Shown piece after piece: positions 5,034 through 15,294 of a DNA stretch of 28,126 bases. This DNA comes from Thermovirgaceae bacterium. Its GTDB lineage: Bacteria > Synergistota > Synergistia > Synergistales > Thermovirgaceae. A model generated the notes under the pieces. That model had not been told where the DNA came from, ran no database searches, and worked only from the letters and a program-made list of their open reading frames with translations. The number at the start of each line of letters is the position of its first letter. The stretch's first letter is position 1. Location: contig JBKHBH010000022.1 of assembly GCA_046542505.1 (NCBI GenBank), positions 1 through 28,126 on the forward strand, read 5' to 3'. Both the position numbers and the translations under genes were made by a program.

Positions 5034-5879
5034 ATGAGTCTTATTAAAAAAAGGTACGATTTTGTGTTTTTCTTTGATGTTCAAGATGGGAACCCCAATG
5101 GAGATCCAGATGCAGGCAACTTGCCAAGGATTGATGCTGAGACAGGAATGGGACTGGTAACGGATGTTTGTTTGAAACGAAAGGTGAGAAATTACGTCCA
5201 ACTCAAAGGCTATGACATTTTCGTAAAAGAAAAAGCAGTTCTCAATAACTTGATAGAAGAAGCTCATAGACAAGAAGAAGTTGAAAAATCAGACGAGAAG
5301 GAGAAAACAGGTGCAGCCAGAGATTGGATGTGTAAAAAGTATTTCGACATCAGGACATTTGGAGCAGTAATGACGACCGGGAAAAATGCCGGACAAGTTC
5401 GTGGTCCTGTACAACTCACCTTTGCGCGTTCGGTTGAACCTATTGTTGCCCTGGAGCACAGCATTACACGCATGGCCGTAGCAACTGAGGCAGAAGCGGA
5501 AAAACAAGGCGGAGATAATCGGACCATGGGTCGCAAGTTTACAGTACCTTATGGCCTTTACCGGGCGCATGGGTTCATTTCGGCACATCTTGCATCACAA
5601 ACCGGGTTTTCGCAGGAAGATCTGGATCTTTTCTGGGAAGCACTGGTCAATATGTTCGAACACGATCGATCGGCAGCCCGCGGGTTAATGTGCTCAAGGG
5701 CGGTGGTGGCCTTTGAGCATCAATCAGCCCTCGGGAACAGGCCTGCACATGAGCTTTTCTCGCGGGTGACTGCAGAGCGTGTATCTGAGGGGCCTGCAAG
5801 AGAGTTCTCTGACTACAAAATAATGCTTGACGGAGATCCTCTGGAAAAAATCTTCAATATGGTTCCTGTTACTGAATGA
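5034..5879 (+). CDS. cas7c: Type I-C backbone Cas7 (Csd2)
   Basis: [62 protein letters not shown] motifs. Confidence 0.97.
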
Positions 5880-10544: not shown

Positions 10545-12470
10545 ATGAAGAATTCGAGTGCGGTCAGAGTGTGTTCTCCCATTACTGTCGGCAACGTCAC
10601 GATCAAGAACAGGTTAGTGGTCGCGCCCATGGTGACGGTTTATTGTGACCAGGACGGCATGGCCACGGAGCGTTTCATCAGGTACCACGAGGAGAAGGCC
10701 AGGGGTGGATGGGGCCTGATTACCGTTGAGGACTATGCCGTAGACCCCATCGGGAGGGGCTTCTGGACGCCGGGGCTCTGGAAGGACGAGCAGATTCCGT
10801 CCCACGCTGAACTGGTGGAGCGGGTACACGCCGCCGGGTCAAGGATTGTGGCCCAGATCTACCATTGCGGCAGACAAACCATGTCCGCCCTCGTGGGCGA
10901 GCAGCCCGTGTCGGCCTCACCGCTGCCGTGCCCGATTCTGGGCGAGGTGCCCAGGCAACTGACGGTGCCCGAGATCAAAAAGATCGTCTCCCAGTTCGGC
11001 GACACGGCCCTGAGGGCGAAAAAGGCCGGCTTTGACGGCGTCCAGGTGCACGGTGCCCACGGGTACCTTATCGCACAGTTCATGTCGAAGTACTCCAACA
11101 AGCGCTGCGACGAGTACGGGGGTGCCCTGGAGAACAGGCTCCGCTTCCCCCTCGAGATTGTGGCGGATATCCGCAAAAAGTGCGGTCCCGATTTCCTGGT
11201 CGACTTCCGGATCTCCGGCGATGAATTCGTGCCCGGTGGCAGGACGATCGAGGAGACCAAGACCATCGCCATGCAGCTCGAGAAGCAGGGTATCGACATG
11301 ATCCACGTTTCGGCAGGAACCTATGAGAGCACCTGGTCCATAATCCCGCCCATGAACATCACAAACGGGTGGATCGCCGACCTCGCGGCAGAGGTCAAAA
11401 AGGTGGTCTGTATCCCGGTGACCACGGTGGGCCGCATCAATGACCCCATGCTGGCCGAAAGCATCCTGGCTTCGGGGAAGGCCGACCTGGTGGCCATGGG
11501 CAGGGCGTCTCTGGCGGATCCCGAGCTTCCGAAAAAGTACTTCGAGGGACGCTACGAGGACATCCGTCCATGCATCGGGTGTCAGCAGGGATGCCTGGAA
11601 GTGCTTTTCAACAACGAACCCATTCGGTGTCTCGTGAACCCCATTTTGGGATTCGAGTACAAGGACGAGCTCAAGAAGGCCGACAAGCCGAAGAAGGTCA
11701 CCGTCGTGGGTGCCGGTCCGGCCGGCTTGGAGGCGGCCCGTGCGGCGGCCCTGGCGGGACATGAAGTCACGCTCTACGAGAAGACGGACTGTTTCGGCGG
11801 CGAGTTCACCACGGCGGCCATCCCTCCGGTAAAGGGGGACCTCATGGGCTATGTTTCCTGGGCGGCGAAGCAGGTGGAGAAGCTCGGCGTGGATATCAGG
11901 ATGAACACGGAGTACACGGCCGAGCTTTGTGAGAAGGAAAAGCCCGACAAGGTGATTATCGCCACCGGGGCTCAGCATTCCAGACCTCCGATTTCCGGGA
12001 TCGACGGATCCAACGTGGTGACCGCCACGGACGTGCTGTGGGGCAGGGCCGCTACCGGACAGAAGGTGGTCGTTGCCGGGGGGGGCATGATCGGCAGCGA
12101 AACGGCGACGTACCTTGCGTCTTTGAACAAGCAGGTGACCATCGTGGAGATGCTTCCCCAGGTGGCCGCCGACGAGGAGTTCACCAGGCGGGTGCTGATG
12201 CTCAAGATGTTCGAGGAAAAGCACATCGACGTCATGACCGACACGAAGATCACCATGATCACCGATACGGGGGTACAGGTTGAAACAGGGCCTGACACCA
12301 CGGAGATCGAAGCCGACACGGTGGTCCTGGCCCTGGGCATGACGCCCGAAAAGGGCCTGGTCGAAGAGCTCAAGGGCAAGGCGGACGTTGTCGTCGTGGG
12401 CGACGCGGTGGACGCACGCAACGCCCTGGAGGCCACCAGGGAAGGTTTCCTGGCGGGCGCCGGAGCCTAG
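10545..12470 (+). CDS. Old Yellow Enzyme-family FMN/4Fe-4S/FAD NAD(P)H-dependent ene-reductase (FadH/BaiCD-like architecture)
   Basis: KNRLVVAPM, GFDGVQVHGAHGYLIAQF, N.R.DEYGG, CIGCQQGC-x11-C Fe-S motif, two Rossmann motifs (VVGAGPAG, VAGGGMIG); GAGGAGG RBS. Confidence 0.92.
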   Translation: MKNSSAVRVCSPITVGNVTIKNRLVVAPMVTVYCDQDGMATERFIRYHEEKARGGWGLITVEDYAVDPIGRGFWTPGLWKDEQIPSHAELVERVHAAGSRIVAQIYHCGRQTMSALVGEQPVSASPLPCPILGEVPRQLTVPEIKKIVSQFGDTALRAKKAGFDGVQVHGAHGYLIAQFMSKYSNKRCDEYGGALENRLRFPLEIVADIRKKCGPDFLVDFRISGDEFVPGGRTIEETKTIAMQLEKQGIDMIHVSAGTYESTWSIIPPMNITNGWIADLAAEVKKVVCIPVTTVGRINDPMLAESILASGKADLVAMGRASLADPELPKKYFEGRYEDIRPCIGCQQGCLEVLFNNEPIRCLVNPILGFEYKDELKKADKPKKVTVVGAGPAGLEAARAAALAGHEVTLYEKTDCFGGEFTTAAIPPVKGDLMGYVSWAAKQVEKLGVDIRMNTEYTAELCEKEKPDKVIIATGAQHSRPPISGIDGSNVVTATDVLWGRAATGQKVVVAGGGMIGSETATYLASLNKQVTIVEMLPQVAADEEFTRRVLMLKMFEEKHIDVMTDTKITMITDTGVQVETGPDTTEIEADTVVLALGMTPEKGLVEELKGKADVVVVGDAVDARNALEATREGFLAGAGA

Positions 12471-12491
12471 GAAACAGGCATGTTTCCTAGG
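12466..12491 (+). terminator. Hairpin at the end of the reductase gene (possible terminator, weak U tract)
   Basis: CCTAGGAAACA-GGCA-TGTTTCCTAGG, perfect 11-bp stem overlapping the stop codon. Confidence 0.55.
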
Positions 12492-12520
12492 GTTCTGAAT
12501 AAAGTCTGAATTTTCTTTCG

Positions 12521-12549
12521 TTGACAGGACGGTACAAGTTGGTTAAGAT
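12521..12549 (+). promoter_or_regulatory. Sigma70-type promoter for the met leader and metNIQ
   Basis: TTGACA (12521-12526), 17 nt, TAAGAT (12544-12549). Confidence 0.8.
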
Positions 12550-12600
12550 ACTCCTCAACTTCGGGGACAAGGGCCCCGACAGGAAAGAGTGGTTGAAGCA

Positions 12601-12690
12601 GTGAAACGGAAGACGGCACCGGCAGCAGTTACCAGCATCATGATGATGTGCATGTGCGGCGGTCCCCCTGGGGTGATCGGCGCAGCTTGA
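12601..12690 (+). CDS. Putative Met/Cys-rich attenuator leader peptide MKRKTAPAAVTSIMMMCMCGGPPGVIGAA (29 aa)
   Basis: GTG...TGA ORF with ATG ATG ATG TGC ATG TGC at 12640-12657, placed between the promoter and a terminator upstream of metN; purine-rich GAAAGAGTGG upstream; alternative in-frame GTG at 12589. Confidence 0.75.
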   Translation: MKRKTAPAAVTSIMMMCMCGGPPGVIGAA

Positions 12691-12714
12691 TGCTGCCGTC
12701 GAAAGACCTTTCAG

Positions 12715-12752
12715 GCCGGGACCTTCATTTTTTGAAGGTCCCGGCTTTTTTT
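12715..12752 (+). terminator. Intrinsic terminator (attenuator) in the metN leader
   Basis: GCCGGGACCTTCA-TTTTT-TGAAGGTCCCGGC 13-bp stem followed by T7, ending 47 nt before the metN start. Confidence 0.88.
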
Positions 12753-12799
12753 ATGCCTTTTTGCCGCCGGGTGCGGCGGATTTTCCGGAGGTGCGGAAC

Positions 12800-13813
12800 A
12801 TGATCGAAATCAGAAACGTTGGAAAGACTTTCAGTTCGGGCGGGAAAGGGCTTGAAGCCCTCAAGGACATTTCCCTCCATATCGAACCGGGAGATATCTT
12901 CGGTATCATCGGCCTCAGCGGTGCGGGGAAATCCACCTTGCTTCGAGCCATCAACAGGCTGGGGGAACCCGATTCGGGACAGATCATCCTGGGCGGAACG
13001 GACGTGACAACCCTCGACTCCGGCGGTCTCCGGGGCCTCAGGAGGAAGGTGGGGATGATCTTCCAGGACTTCAACCTTCTTTCGTCCCGCACTGTCTCGG
13101 GCAACGTGGCCTTCGCTCTCGAAGTGGGCAAATGGGCCAAAAAGGACATATCCCGTCGAGTGGCGGAGATGCTCGAGCTTGTAGGGCTTTCGGACAAGGC
13201 CCAGAACTACCCGTCACAGCTGAGCGGGGGCCAGAAGCAGCGCGTTGGAATCGCCAGGGCCCTGGCCAACAAGCCGTCGGTTTTGCTGAGCGACGAGGCG
13301 ACGAGTGCTCTCGATCCCAAAACCACGCAGTCCATTCTGGCGCTGCTTGAGGACATCAATAAAAAAATGGACATCACTGTCGTTCTGGTGACTCACGAAA
13401 TGGGCGTCATCCGGCAAATCTGCCATAGGGTGGCCGTCCTCGAGGCCGGAAGAGTGGTGGAGCAGGGAAGGGTTCGTGATGTCTTCATGAAGCCCTGGTC
13501 CCGCACGGCAAAAGAACTTCTGAGCCACCTGCCCCGGAGAAGCTACGACGTGGACCGGCTCCCCAGGGAGCCGGGAAAGCCGGTGGTGACTTTTTCCTTC
13601 AACGGTGGCACGGTCGACCGGCCCATCATCTCGAGAGCCATCAAAAAGACCGGGACGGAGATTAATATCCTGTCTGGTGAGATCGACAGTCTACCCGCCT
13701 CACGGGTGGGGAGTCTGACGGTCCAGCTTGCCGGGACCGAAGAGGAGATTGCCGGAGCCCTGTCGTATATGCGTTCTCAAAAGGTGGAAACCGAGGTGAT
13801 CTGGAATGGATAA
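12800..13813 (+). CDS. metN: Methionine ABC transporter ATP-binding protein
   Basis: GIIGLSGAGKS, LSGGQKQRVGIARAL, DEATSALDP, C-terminal NIL-type domain (INILSGEI); ATG 12800 follows GGAGGTG. Confidence 0.93.
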   Translation: MIEIRNVGKTFSSGGKGLEALKDISLHIEPGDIFGIIGLSGAGKSTLLRAINRLGEPDSGQIILGGTDVTTLDSGGLRGLRRKVGMIFQDFNLLSSRTVSGNVAFALEVGKWAKKDISRRVAEMLELVGLSDKAQNYPSQLSGGQKQRVGIARALANKPSVLLSDEATSALDPKTTQSILALLEDINKKMDITVVLVTHEMGVIRQICHRVAVLEAGRVVEQGRVRDVFMKPWSRTAKELLSHLPRRSYDVDRLPREPGKPVVTFSFNGGTVDRPIISRAIKKTGTEINILSGEIDSLPASRVGSLTVQLAGTEEEIAGALSYMRSQKVETEVIWNG

Positions 13814-14462
13814 TCTGGCCGAACTCGCGGGCCTCCTTGCGACCCCGACGTGGGAAACGCTTTATATGGTGTTCTTTTCGACGCTGTTCGCGACACTCAT
13901 GGGATTTCCCCTGGGAATCGTCCTGGTAGTGACCGAAAAGGGCGGAATCCTCGAGAACGAACACCTGTACCGCGTGCTGGACGGGATCGTCAACGTCTTG
14001 CGGTCCTTCCCGTTCATCATCCTGATGATCATCCTCTTTCCCCTCTCCCGGGTCGTGGTGGGTACCACCATCGGGACCACGGCGTCCATCGTCCCCCTGG
14101 CCATCGCCGCCGCGCCCTTCGTGGCGAGGGTGGTGGAGAGCGCCCTCAAGGAGGTCGACCAAGGTCTGGTAGAAGCGGCGGTCTCCATGGGAAGCAGCCC
14201 GAAAGAGATCATCTTCAAGGTCCTGATTCCGGAGGCGCTCCCGCTACTCGTACTTGGAGAGACGCTGACGGTGATCAACATCATCGGCTATTCGGCCATG
14301 GCCGGAGCCATCGGAGGGGGTGGTTTGGGTGATCTTGCCGTTCGTTATGGATTCCACCGCTTCCAGACGGATGTGTTGATCGCGGCCGTTGTCGTGATCA
14401 TTGCGATGGTCCAGGTGATCCAGGGCGCGGGAAACGCTCTCGCGCGCCGGGTCTCGCACTGA
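13806..14462 (+). CDS. metI: Methionine ABC transporter permease
   Basis: TWETLYMV, NVLRSFPFIIL, EAAVSMG, GYSAMAGAIGGGGLGDLA motifs. Confidence 0.95.
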   Translation: MDNLAELAGLLATPTWETLYMVFFSTLFATLMGFPLGIVLVVTEKGGILENEHLYRVLDGIVNVLRSFPFIILMIILFPLSRVVVGTTIGTTASIVPLAIAAAPFVARVVESALKEVDQGLVEAAVSMGSSPKEIIFKVLIPEALPLLVLGETLTVINIIGYSAMAGAIGGGGLGDLAVRYGFHRFQTDVLIAAVVVIIAMVQVIQGAGNALARRVSH

Positions 14463-14487: not shown

Positions 14488-15294
14488 ATGATGAGAATGA
14501 AAAAACTTTCGGTCCTTTCGCTTTTTGTCTTTACCCTTTTTGCAGTTGCAGCAGGTCCCCTTTCGGTATCGGCCGGGGAAGTGCTCAAGATCGGGGCCAC
14601 GCCTGTTCCGCATGCGGAGATCCTCAATTTCATCCAGGACGACGTGGCGGCCGATGGTGTCCAGCTCGAAGTCGTCGAATTCACCGACTACGTGAAACCA
14701 AACCTGGCCCTGAACGACGGCGAGCTTGACGCCAACTACTTCCAGCACCTTCCCTATCTTGAGGATTTCAACACCACCCACGGGACGAAACTCGTTCCCG
14801 TCGGGACAGTTCACGTCGAGCCCCTTGGGCTATACTCCGAAAAGGCGGATTCCGTGGATGATCTCGAAGAGGGGGCGTTGATCGCCATACCAAGCGACAG
14901 CGTCAACGGGGCAAGGGCACTGCTCCTCCTCGAGTCGAAGGGGCTTATCGACGTGGACAATGACGCGGGGCTTGCCGCTACGGAGCGCGACATCACGGGA
15001 AACCCTAAGAAGCTCAAGTTCAAGGGCATCGAGGCCGCCCAGCTTCCCAGGGTGCTTCCAGACGTTGACGGGGCCGTCATCAACGGCAACTACGCCCTCG
15101 AGGCCGGCTTCAACCCTGCAGAGGACGCCATTCTTCTCGAAGACGGCGAGTCCCCCTATACCAACATCCTTGTCGTCAGGGAAGGCGACGGGGAGGACGA
15201 GCAGATCGCCGTGGTGTTGAAACATTTGCAGTCCCGGAAAGTGGCCGATTTTATCCTGTCGGAGTACGAGGGTGGCGTGGTGCCGGCATTCTAG
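14488..15294 (+). CDS. metQ: Methionine ABC transporter substrate-binding protein (MetQ/NlpA family)
   Basis: IGATPVPHAEIL, FTDYVKPN.AL, DANYFQHLPYL, VINGNYAL; signal peptide without lipobox Cys; start may be ATG 14491 or 14497. Confidence 0.93.
   Translation: MMRMKKLSVLSLFVFTLFAVAAGPLSVSAGEVLKIGATPVPHAEILNFIQDDVAADGVQLEVVEFTDYVKPNLALNDGELDANYFQHLPYLEDFNTTHGTKLVPVGTVHVEPLGLYSEKADSVDDLEEGALIAIPSDSVNGARALLLLESKGLIDVDNDAGLAATERDITGNPKKLKFKGIEAAQLPRVLPDVDGAVINGNYALEAGFNPAEDAILLEDGESPYTNILVVREGDGEDEQIAVVLKHLQSRKVADFILSEYEGGVVPAF

Follow-up and report, generated by a model that had tools for sequence, protein, structure and literature searches.

A probable methionine-codon attenuator upstream of metNIQ in a Thermovirgaceae bacterium and a related leader module in Synergistales

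Introduction

Leader-peptide attenuation is textbook knowledge for Trp, His, Leu, Thr, Ile/Val, and Phe, and the methionine importer operon metNIQ is usually controlled in other bacteria by S-adenosylmethionine (SAM) riboswitches, T-boxes, or MetJ. In the enterobacterial attenuators (trpL, hisL, leuL, thrL, the ilv leaders, and pheL), a short translated leader with a run of cognate codons lies ahead of an intrinsic terminator and an antiterminator that exclude each other, and the position of the ribosome acts as the switch. Here we report on a leader of this kind in a stretch of 28,126 nucleotides (nt) from a Thermovirgaceae bacterium (hereafter "the window"; contig JBKHBH010000022.1 of assembly GCA_046542505.1, forward strand), in which a short upstream open reading frame (uORF) with a run of Met and Cys codons precedes metNIQ. 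An initial annotation of this region (12521-12799) had proposed a ribosome-mediated transcription attenuator that senses both Met and Cys. Our comparative analysis indicates that the element is very probably a transcription attenuator of the leader-peptide type, which senses how much charged elongator Met-tRNA is available and adjusts the transcription of metNIQ accordingly, and that it is one copy of a module which Synergistales reuse with different sensor codons. That it is an attenuator is strongly supported by two features recognized across the whole family of leaders, namely the match between codon run and downstream gene and the co-variation of the antiterminator with the terminator.

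Among the closest described systems is metL of Streptomyces lividans TK24, a leaderless leader of 29 codons before metNIQ, which was read as a methionine-dependent attenuator in a re-annotation of that genome; in the parts of the article covered here, its authors ran no test of this reading and found no typical Rho-independent terminator (PMC8079986). This annotation, taken from the same parts of the article, was the only item on Met leaders that our literature search found. It resembles the present leader in its 29 codons, in the Met and Cys codons interleaved near its end, and in its place directly before metNIQ, and differs from it in that the transcript is leaderless, the Gly-Pro-Pro-Gly module described below is missing, and no resemblance is seen by eye between the unaligned sequences (PMC8079986, same parts). 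The initial annotation was right that a dual Met/Cys leader is not among the textbook attenuators; one with Met and Cys codons before metNIQ had, however, already been annotated in S. lividans as an experimentally untested proposal (PMC8079986). The leaderless polycysteine short ORFs known from mycobacteria as the "Cys ribulon" share with our leaders the stalling on sulfur-amino-acid codons in a short ORF and the use of one sensing logic at many loci. As far as the covered portion of that preprint describes them, they respond to Cys only, lack a terminator, and act on translation by making the following gene's ribosome-binding site accessible, whereas the Synergistales leaders would act by transcription termination, include Met runs, and use one RNA platform for several amino acid classes (bioRxiv 10.1101/834739). 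The SAM-I (S-box) riboswitch shares both its physiological target and its terminator/antiterminator output with the present leader, but uses an aptamer to sense SAM; no such riboswitch was found in the metNIQ leader. In the covered parts of two further papers, a survey of Actinobacteria reports no RNA element before met genes (PMC1262725) and the study of Naville and Gautheret does not mention metN (PMC2965389). We found no description of the Synergistales attenuator family or its module in the literature covered, which did not extend to Russian-language surveys of attenuation. The system is of a known kind, with one experimentally untested precedent as a Met sensor, and the order-wide module with the stop codon in its spacer appears to be undescribed.

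Results and discussion

Architecture of the metNIQ leader

Direct reading of the sequence, promoter and terminator searches, and Pfam assignments bear out the parts named in the initial annotation, all on the plus strand and at the same positions: a promoter, a uORF of 29 codons containing Met-Met-Met-Cys-Met-Cys, a terminator followed by seven T residues, and metNIQ. The uORF extends from GTG at 12601 to TGA at 12688-12690 (12601-12690) and encodes the peptide MKRKTAPAAVTSIMMMCMCGGPPGVIGAA. Its six sulfur codons (ATG ATG ATG TGC ATG TGC) occupy 12640-12657, so that four Met codons fall within five codons (12640-12654) ahead of metNIQ; the pattern ATGATGATGNNNATG occurs once in the window versus 0.02 occurrences expected, and was matched in 2 of 100 shuffled sequences. 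We consider Met14-Met15-Met16-Cys17-Met18 (12640-12654), which are kept in 6/6 close relatives, to be the probable sensor codons. The following Cys19 (12655-12657), which is Cys, Tyr, or Arg within the genus, belongs in our reading to the shared module and not to the sensor run. Next comes the predicted 5' arm of the antiterminator (arm A, 12658-12674), whose core GGTCCCCCTGG codes for Gly-Pro-Pro-Gly and whose predicted partner, the 3' arm at 12706-12726, overlaps the 5' arm of the terminator. Between the two arms, a hairpin is predicted at 12677-12702 with the stop codon in its loop. The intrinsic terminator (12713-12752) consists of a 15-pair stem (12713-12747), in which 12715-12727 and 12733-12745 form a G+C core of 13 pairs, and of the T run at 12746-12752.

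At its upstream end, the leader has a sigma-70-type promoter (TTGACA-17-TAAGAT, 12521-12549) that matches 10 of 12 consensus positions, and two promoter-like sites were found in the region 12000-13200, where 0.3 would be expected. Minimum free energy (MFE) folds predict a stem-loop at the 5' end of the leader RNA (12556-12595) that encloses the Shine-Dalgarno-like sequence AGGAAAGAG. An alternative in-frame GTG at 12589 lies nearer to AGGA at 12581-12584, and the uORF may have 33 codons if it is used; the choice between the two starts is immaterial to the attenuator argument. Downstream of the terminator follow a ribosome-binding site (GGAGG, 12788-12792), metN (12800-13813; Pfam ABC_tran and NIL), metI (13806-14462; BPD_transp_1), and metQ (14488-15294; Lipoprotein_9, the NlpA lipoprotein family).

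The initial annotation had equated this arrangement with the layout of the trp/his/thr/leu leaders, and this equation did not survive closer inspection. The present leader senses, as we propose, Met; the 5' arm of its antiterminator lies inside the uORF, after the sensor codons; its stop codon is in the spacer separating the antiterminator arms, within a hairpin loop; and a clear 1:2 hairpin was not seen in the folds. A local hairpin of arm A and 12670-12678 is predicted to arise only after the terminator has formed. No relation to the enterobacterial leaders was seen either in sequence or by covariance models: for the region 12440-12860, the best leader-type Rfam match at E <= 10, that to Thr_leader (RF00506), scored 16.1 bits (E = 1.7), the cut-off of this family being 55.

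Conservation in close relatives

When 41 related genomes were searched at the DNA level, the 301-nt leader was recovered at full length, with 84-90% identity, in four of the five other genomes of the genus and in one further genome (G011); it was not found in the remaining member of the genus (G001), the assembly of which is 72% complete. In the six close leaders, the -35 hexamer, the GTG, the run Met-Met-Met-Cys-Met, and everything from codon 20 to the terminator are kept, with a -10 element of either TAAGAT or TAACAT. The N-terminal half of the uORF varies among them, and the part from codon 14 to the stop is invariant except for codon 19, which is Cys in four leaders, Tyr in G003, and Arg in G004. 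Conservation of an in-frame Met/Cys run in relatives, which the initial annotation had named as a check, was therefore found for the first five codons of the run, the sixth being Cys in four leaders only. A 230-nt contig from the sequencing run of a relative also spans 12489-12714; the run probably represents DNA and is uninformative on expression.

A leader module shared across Synergistales

Weaker matches of the same search carried only the 3' half of the leader, behind different codon runs. Three elements make up this shared half: the arm GGNCCNCCNGG, a small hairpin whose loop holds the stop codon, and, ahead of a T run, a terminator of the type GGCCGGGACC...GGTCCCGGC. With a strict regular expression, only the window's own copy of the module was recovered in the genome, so that a covariance model was needed, and we built one (R1) from the module. 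R1 has matches in 117 of 151 sampled Synergistales genomes, which represent 47 of 51 genera, and a single genome may contain as many as 16 of them. At E <= 1e-9, 34 of the 101 genomes in a phylum-wide sample match, and no match was obtained at this threshold in the seven genomes of three families (f11-f13) outside the order sample. We examined 154 matches, comprising the best ones of the order-wide search, the copies in the window's own genome, and one additional locus (L010); approximately 345 further matches lie outside this set. A uORF is present in 150 of the 154, nearly always with a Shine-Dalgarno-like motif, and its stop codon is located 33 or 36 nt into the R1 match in 147 of the 150.

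The genome from which the window derives holds five copies of the module, one of Met type, one of Ile/Leu/Val type, two aromatic, and one mixed. Their leader peptides read as given above for this locus (contig C42), VLRSSVILAIILLVLIPCGSPPGAAVT (C110), ...MNCFGFYYFSGVEPPLRFDA (C30), ...MNWFCFYYYGSVEPPLRFDA (C88), and ...FAYALIIYFPSGSPSW (C125). Two other R1 matches in this genome (on C87 and C24) were discarded as gene ends with plain terminators, and several more as matches to terminators on the reverse strand; these spurious matches imply that R1 is not specific below about 40 bits. A separate scan of genome contigs for the Met-leader pattern gave 65 stretches, of which six were a short uORF followed by a terminator, all in Synergistales; the remaining 59 lay within or opposite long ORFs and were set aside as chance occurrences.

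Codon runs match the downstream genes

The 150 leaders with a uORF were classed by a residue-count rule of our own, applied to the codons before the module (the four matches without a uORF being dropped), and the first long ORF downstream was compared with Pfam (143 ORFs). Behind the 26 Met-class leaders we found MetN in nine cases (counts that are not independent, six of them being the window and its close relatives), MetQ in two, the O-acetylhomoserine sulfhydrylase-type MetY in one, and a family of approximately 420 amino acids (aa) without a Pfam match in ten. All four leaders with a Met+Thr run precede aspartokinase, and three of the four Thr-class leaders precede homoserine dehydrogenase. 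The Ile/Leu/Val class (n = 83) is followed by the acetolactate synthase small subunit in 34 cases, ketol-acid reductoisomerase in five, and, behind Val runs, PanB (ketopantoate hydroxymethyltransferase) in two. Behind the 24 aromatic (Phe/Tyr/Trp) leaders, an adenosine monophosphate (AMP)-binding ligase similar to PaaK was found 11 times, SBP_bac_3 four times, and an SSF transporter three times. Among the nine leaders of the remaining class are one of Leu type, which precedes an isopropylmalate synthase-type gene (HMGL-like), and two of the three leaders of Ile type that precede threonine-dehydratase-type PALP enzymes; the last of these three (IMIIM) fell into the Met class under the counting rule.

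In total, MetN, MetQ, or MetY stands behind 12 of the 26 Met-class leaders versus none of the 124 others. MetN also follows leaders with MMMCMC in three genomes of another family (G118, G065, and G091), and MetQ follows Met leaders in two further genomes. Such a correspondence between codon run and gene, as read here from annotated sequences, is the signature of sensing by a translating ribosome. Because the module is common to leaders for different amino acids, an aptamer specific for Met or SAM cannot account for it.

The antiterminator co-varies with the terminator

In MFE predictions for the transcript up to the terminator loop, 12658-12674 pairs with 12706-12726 through 16 base pairs (-37 kcal/mol), enclosing the hairpin at 12677-12702; when the 3' arm of the terminator is added, the terminator is preferred (-52.5 kcal/mol). 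The same arm-to-arm pairing, with at least 8 and mostly 12-16 pairs, is predicted before synthesis of the 3' arm in 99 of 99 family members. Arm A forms a more stable duplex with the 5' half of its own terminator (mean -23.4 kcal/mol) than with those of other members (-18.3 kcal/mol; 97 unique pairs), the observed mean being reached in none of 5000 permutations. Within genomes, the corresponding values are -23.2 kcal/mol for own and -17.9 kcal/mol for foreign partners, and the own partner is the best one for 45 of 64 copies. These per-sequence duplex energies, which allow for shifts of register, are stronger tests than the fixed alignment columns considered below.

As to the geometry of the module, the stop codon lies 14 or 17 nt past arm A in 95 of 96 members and mostly 14-21 nt ahead of the partner arm (our own reading of the alignment, corrected by three columns). 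In 86 of the 96, a local hairpin holds it in its loop. From these distances to both arms, the spacer between them is approximately as long as one ribosome footprint, with the stop codon in its middle. When ribosome footprints were modelled on the leader, 12-14 antiterminator pairs were left free with the A site on codons 14-16, 11 with Cys17, 8 with Met18, and 5, in a shifted register, with Cys19; a ribosome stalled at Cys19 would thus cover half of the antiterminator arm.

Proposed mechanism

From these elements we infer, in the following scheme, where the ribosome stands, how events are timed, and how the leader responds to Met. The transcript would start near 12556, and the uORF would be translated while RNA polymerase advances. 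When Met is plentiful, the ribosome would pass arm A and reach the stop codon at 12688; parked there, it would cover approximately 12673-12702, which is the entire spacer, melt the hairpin within it, and keep arm A from 12706-12726. With the arms held apart, the terminator (12713-12747) would form and transcription would stop at the T run. If Met-tRNA runs short, the ribosome would stall with the codon of Met14, Met15, or Met16 (perhaps also of Cys17) in its A site, leaving arm A free just ahead of it; the stop-codon hairpin could then fold and draw the two arms together, and arm A would take the 5' half of the terminator before the 3' half is made, permitting read-through into metN. Leader RNA that is not translated is predicted, with some uncertainty, to read through rather than to super-attenuate. 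If read-through is the default state, a Met starvation that hampers initiation itself would still open the operon.

Several points weigh against this interpretation, in addition to the non-independence of the MetN counts mentioned above. The blocking of arm pairing by a ribosome at the stop codon is a steric argument that we infer rather than a computed result. In fixed alignment columns, the signal of pairing is modest because bulges shift between members: 75.2% of the cells are paired versus 73.1% in shuffled alignments (reached by 1 of 500 shuffles), two-sided pair changes number 6 versus 5.6 (reached by 284 of 500), and the covariation score is 0.216 versus 0.178 (reached by none of 500), the unslid register being the best of seven. 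For the untranslated leader, the predicted fold changes with the 5' end chosen, as the probability of the antiterminator is 0.8-0.96 for 5' ends at 12550-12560 and 0.05-0.1 for those at 12564-12570; cutting the 5' end inside the hairpin at 12556-12595 alters the predicted downstream fold, and 75 of 96 family members keep the antiterminator when given an arbitrary 5' end. Furthermore, the transcription start and the uORF start (GTG at 12601 or 12589) are predictions, and the Shine-Dalgarno match is weak in the genus.

A broader scheme can be formulated, which we put forward tentatively as somewhat short of an even chance: an order-wide attenuator platform into which sensor codons are plugged, with a single RNA switching module, the ribosome at the stop codon as a wedge, exchangeable sensor runs (Met/Cys, Ile/Leu/Val, Phe/Tyr/Trp, Thr, and Met+Thr), several ribosome-run regulons per genome, a Met version that senses Met plus Cys, read-through as the default, and the ability to flag gene function.

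Alternative explanations

The most serious alternative concerns Cys. In a true dual sensor, stalling on the Cys codons would count as well, and the importer would also be induced when cysteine is short, which we regard as rather doubtful, if far from negligible. Cys17 is kept in 6/6 close relatives, and Cys directly follows the Met run in other Met-type leaders (MMMCGMMMC before metY, MIMCMMM and MLMCM before metQ, and MMMCTTM before the ~420-aa family). Cys makes up 9.0% of the sensor stretch in the Met class versus 1.6-2.4% in the other classes, the former share being inflated by leaders in which the module position falls inside the counted stretch, and the S. lividans metNIQ leader, in the part of the article covered, reads ...CMCRRMCAF in what is apparently an independent case (PMC8079986). 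However, two relatives of the same genus have Tyr or Arg in place of Cys19, where stalling would leave only five shifted pairs free; a single Cys codon is a weak sensor; Tyr or Arg follows the Met run in other Met-type leaders; and the aromatic leaders of the window's own genome carry Cys, too. Cys19 itself cannot serve as evidence for Cys sensing because it is a module position (counted over all classes, 33 of 79 leaders have Cys there) that varies within the genus and is badly placed. Of the dual attenuator proposed initially, the ribosome-mediated Met-codon part is thus upheld by the codon-run/gene match and the co-varying antiterminator, and Cys sensing is not established; we conclude that the leader very probably senses Met, with a possible input from Cys.

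The remaining explanations would give the codon run another role or none. As Pro-Pro-Gly is a strong EF-P-dependent pause motif, the Gly-Pro-Pro-Gly encoded by arm A might make the module also, or mainly, a sensor of the general translation state, in which a pause governed by EF-P or proline supply holds the ribosome on arm A and favours termination in all leaders. Of 120 unique leader tails, 59 do have Pro-Pro-Gly, exactly on arm A and always in the same frame, and 20 have another Pro-Pro, but the other 41 lack Pro-Pro (having SPE, LPG, YPG, or SPS instead) and yet the complementarity at the nucleotide level persists in 99 of 99 members; RNA pairing therefore explains the conservation without the peptide, and the amino-acid-specific codon runs would be left without a role under such a reading alone. 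We consider it unlikely, a helpful pause at this motif being possible. Alternatively, the leader might be a T-box, a riboswitch that binds a ligand, or an RNA bound by a protein, and the uORF in it a product of chance. This would fit the usual control of metNIQ in other bacteria, and SAM-I riboswitches and T-box-like matches do occur elsewhere in the order. Specifically, SAM-I is present in 20 of the 41 relatives, and three T-box-like matches lie on other contigs of the window's own genome. The initial annotation had seen neither a T-box nor a SAM-I riboswitch here and had suggested an Rfam scan, which agrees with it: no family reaches its gathering score anywhere in the window, no riboswitch or T-box type is among the leader matches at E <= 10, the SAM-I (RF00162) and T-box (RF00230) models have no match in the window, and SAM-I has none in the six genomes of the genus, the window's own among them. 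Since, moreover, the structured part is common to leaders of unrelated amino acid genes, with only the codon run differing and tracking the gene, and the uORF is so widely kept, explanations of this type are very improbable. Least probable of all is a reading in which the uORF product is a small protein with a function of its own and the hairpin does no more than end its transcript. The locus does form a unit from promoter to terminator with an ORF in it, and many family members are hydrophobic (rich in Ile/Leu/Val), but the N-terminal residues vary freely even within the genus, conservation across the family is confined to the RNA module and to the class of amino acid in the run, and the gene immediately downstream of the unit on the same strand is always one of the matching pathway.

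Implications for methionine supply and gene function

The metNIQ leader would appear, on comparative grounds, to be a well-supported case of a Met attenuator in which terminator and antiterminator are both clear. A search of the assembly, which is 93.5% complete and holds one full-length Cys/Met pyridoxal phosphate enzyme, turned up no MetE or MetH domain, and the metQ gene of the window is the only Lipoprotein_9 gene found in it. Given the failure to find MetE or MetH and the single MetQ, the leader may therefore control the organism's main route to methionine. The occurrence of one module before at least five classes of amino acid genes across the order also provides a natural series, differing in the sensor codons alone, for studying the evolution of attenuators and the readout of ribosome position, and the module may guide functional assignment, since uncharacterized genes behind Met, branched-chain, or aromatic leaders could be assigned to the metabolism or transport of the respective amino acid.

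The ~420-aa family mentioned above may serve as an example. Its 12 members (loci L031, L032, L034, L036, L048, L154, L189, L201, L180/L247, L208, L210, and L194) are 418-432 aa long, share 58-96% identity, and are encoded by the first gene behind Met-type leaders; the family was not found in the window's genome. Neither Pfam nor NCBIfam gave a match for it, and a search of the ESM Atlas with the protein returned no usable match. In G096 the gene is followed by those for aspartokinase, aspartate-semialdehyde dehydrogenase, and homoserine dehydrogenase, and in G034 and G040 by that for a class I/II aminotransferase. An AlphaFold model (predicted local distance difference test score 78) has the look of a TIM barrel, with weak Foldseek matches to class II aldolases (E = 4e-4, TM-score 0.34-0.47). 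We consider the family a candidate enzyme of the Met/homoserine pathway.

Other leaders precede genes of less obvious function. In the window's own genome, the aromatic leader on C30 (5483-5579, minus strand; FGFYYF) precedes a PaaK-like AMP-binding ligase, and that on C88 (5563-5655, minus strand; WFCFYYY) precedes a membrane protein without a Pfam family that is 61% identical to the product of the gene behind a leader in G032. On C110, approximately 79 nt past the terminator of the leader at 5390-5483 (minus strand), lies a short ORF of a kind found behind many leaders of Ile/Leu/Val type, with at least 24 related loci. These ORFs have 51-75 codons, are conserved only at the C-terminus, (W/F)RGPFEGYR followed by the stop, and precede a protein of about 386 aa without a Pfam family. 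With its conserved tail and free N-terminus, such an ORF resembles a second regulatory peptide, possibly one of the arrest type. Behind aromatic leaders that precede SSF transporters, ORFs of 55-58 codons ending in PRWWKY or PHWWRY follow.

We also looked for an exchange of regulators at metNIQ, and none could be shown: SAM-I riboswitches of the same family precede metY-like genes, not metNIQ, in two of four loci inspected. At one metY-type locus (L220, G008:C15), a SAM-I riboswitch at 5-105 (81.8 bits, with its own terminator) is directly followed by a Met/Cys leader of the present family at 197-349 (MTAARTNTMMMCGMMMCNIGGSPPGELGG, likewise with its own terminator) and, from 422 onward, by an O-acetylhomoserine sulfhydrylase-type gene, an arrangement that is, judging by its layout, one of tandem control by SAM and Met-tRNA.

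Around the metNIQ leader itself, a small G+C-rich hairpin (GCCGC...GCGGC, 12763-12779) between the terminator and the metN ribosome-binding site survives base changes in the close relatives. The upstream gene (10545-12470) encodes a fusion of 641 aa that joins an Oxidored_FMN domain (old-yellow-enzyme type) to a pyridine nucleotide-disulphide oxidoreductase domain, an architecture similar to that of 2,4-dienoyl-coenzyme A reductase, and ends 50 nt upstream of the met promoter.

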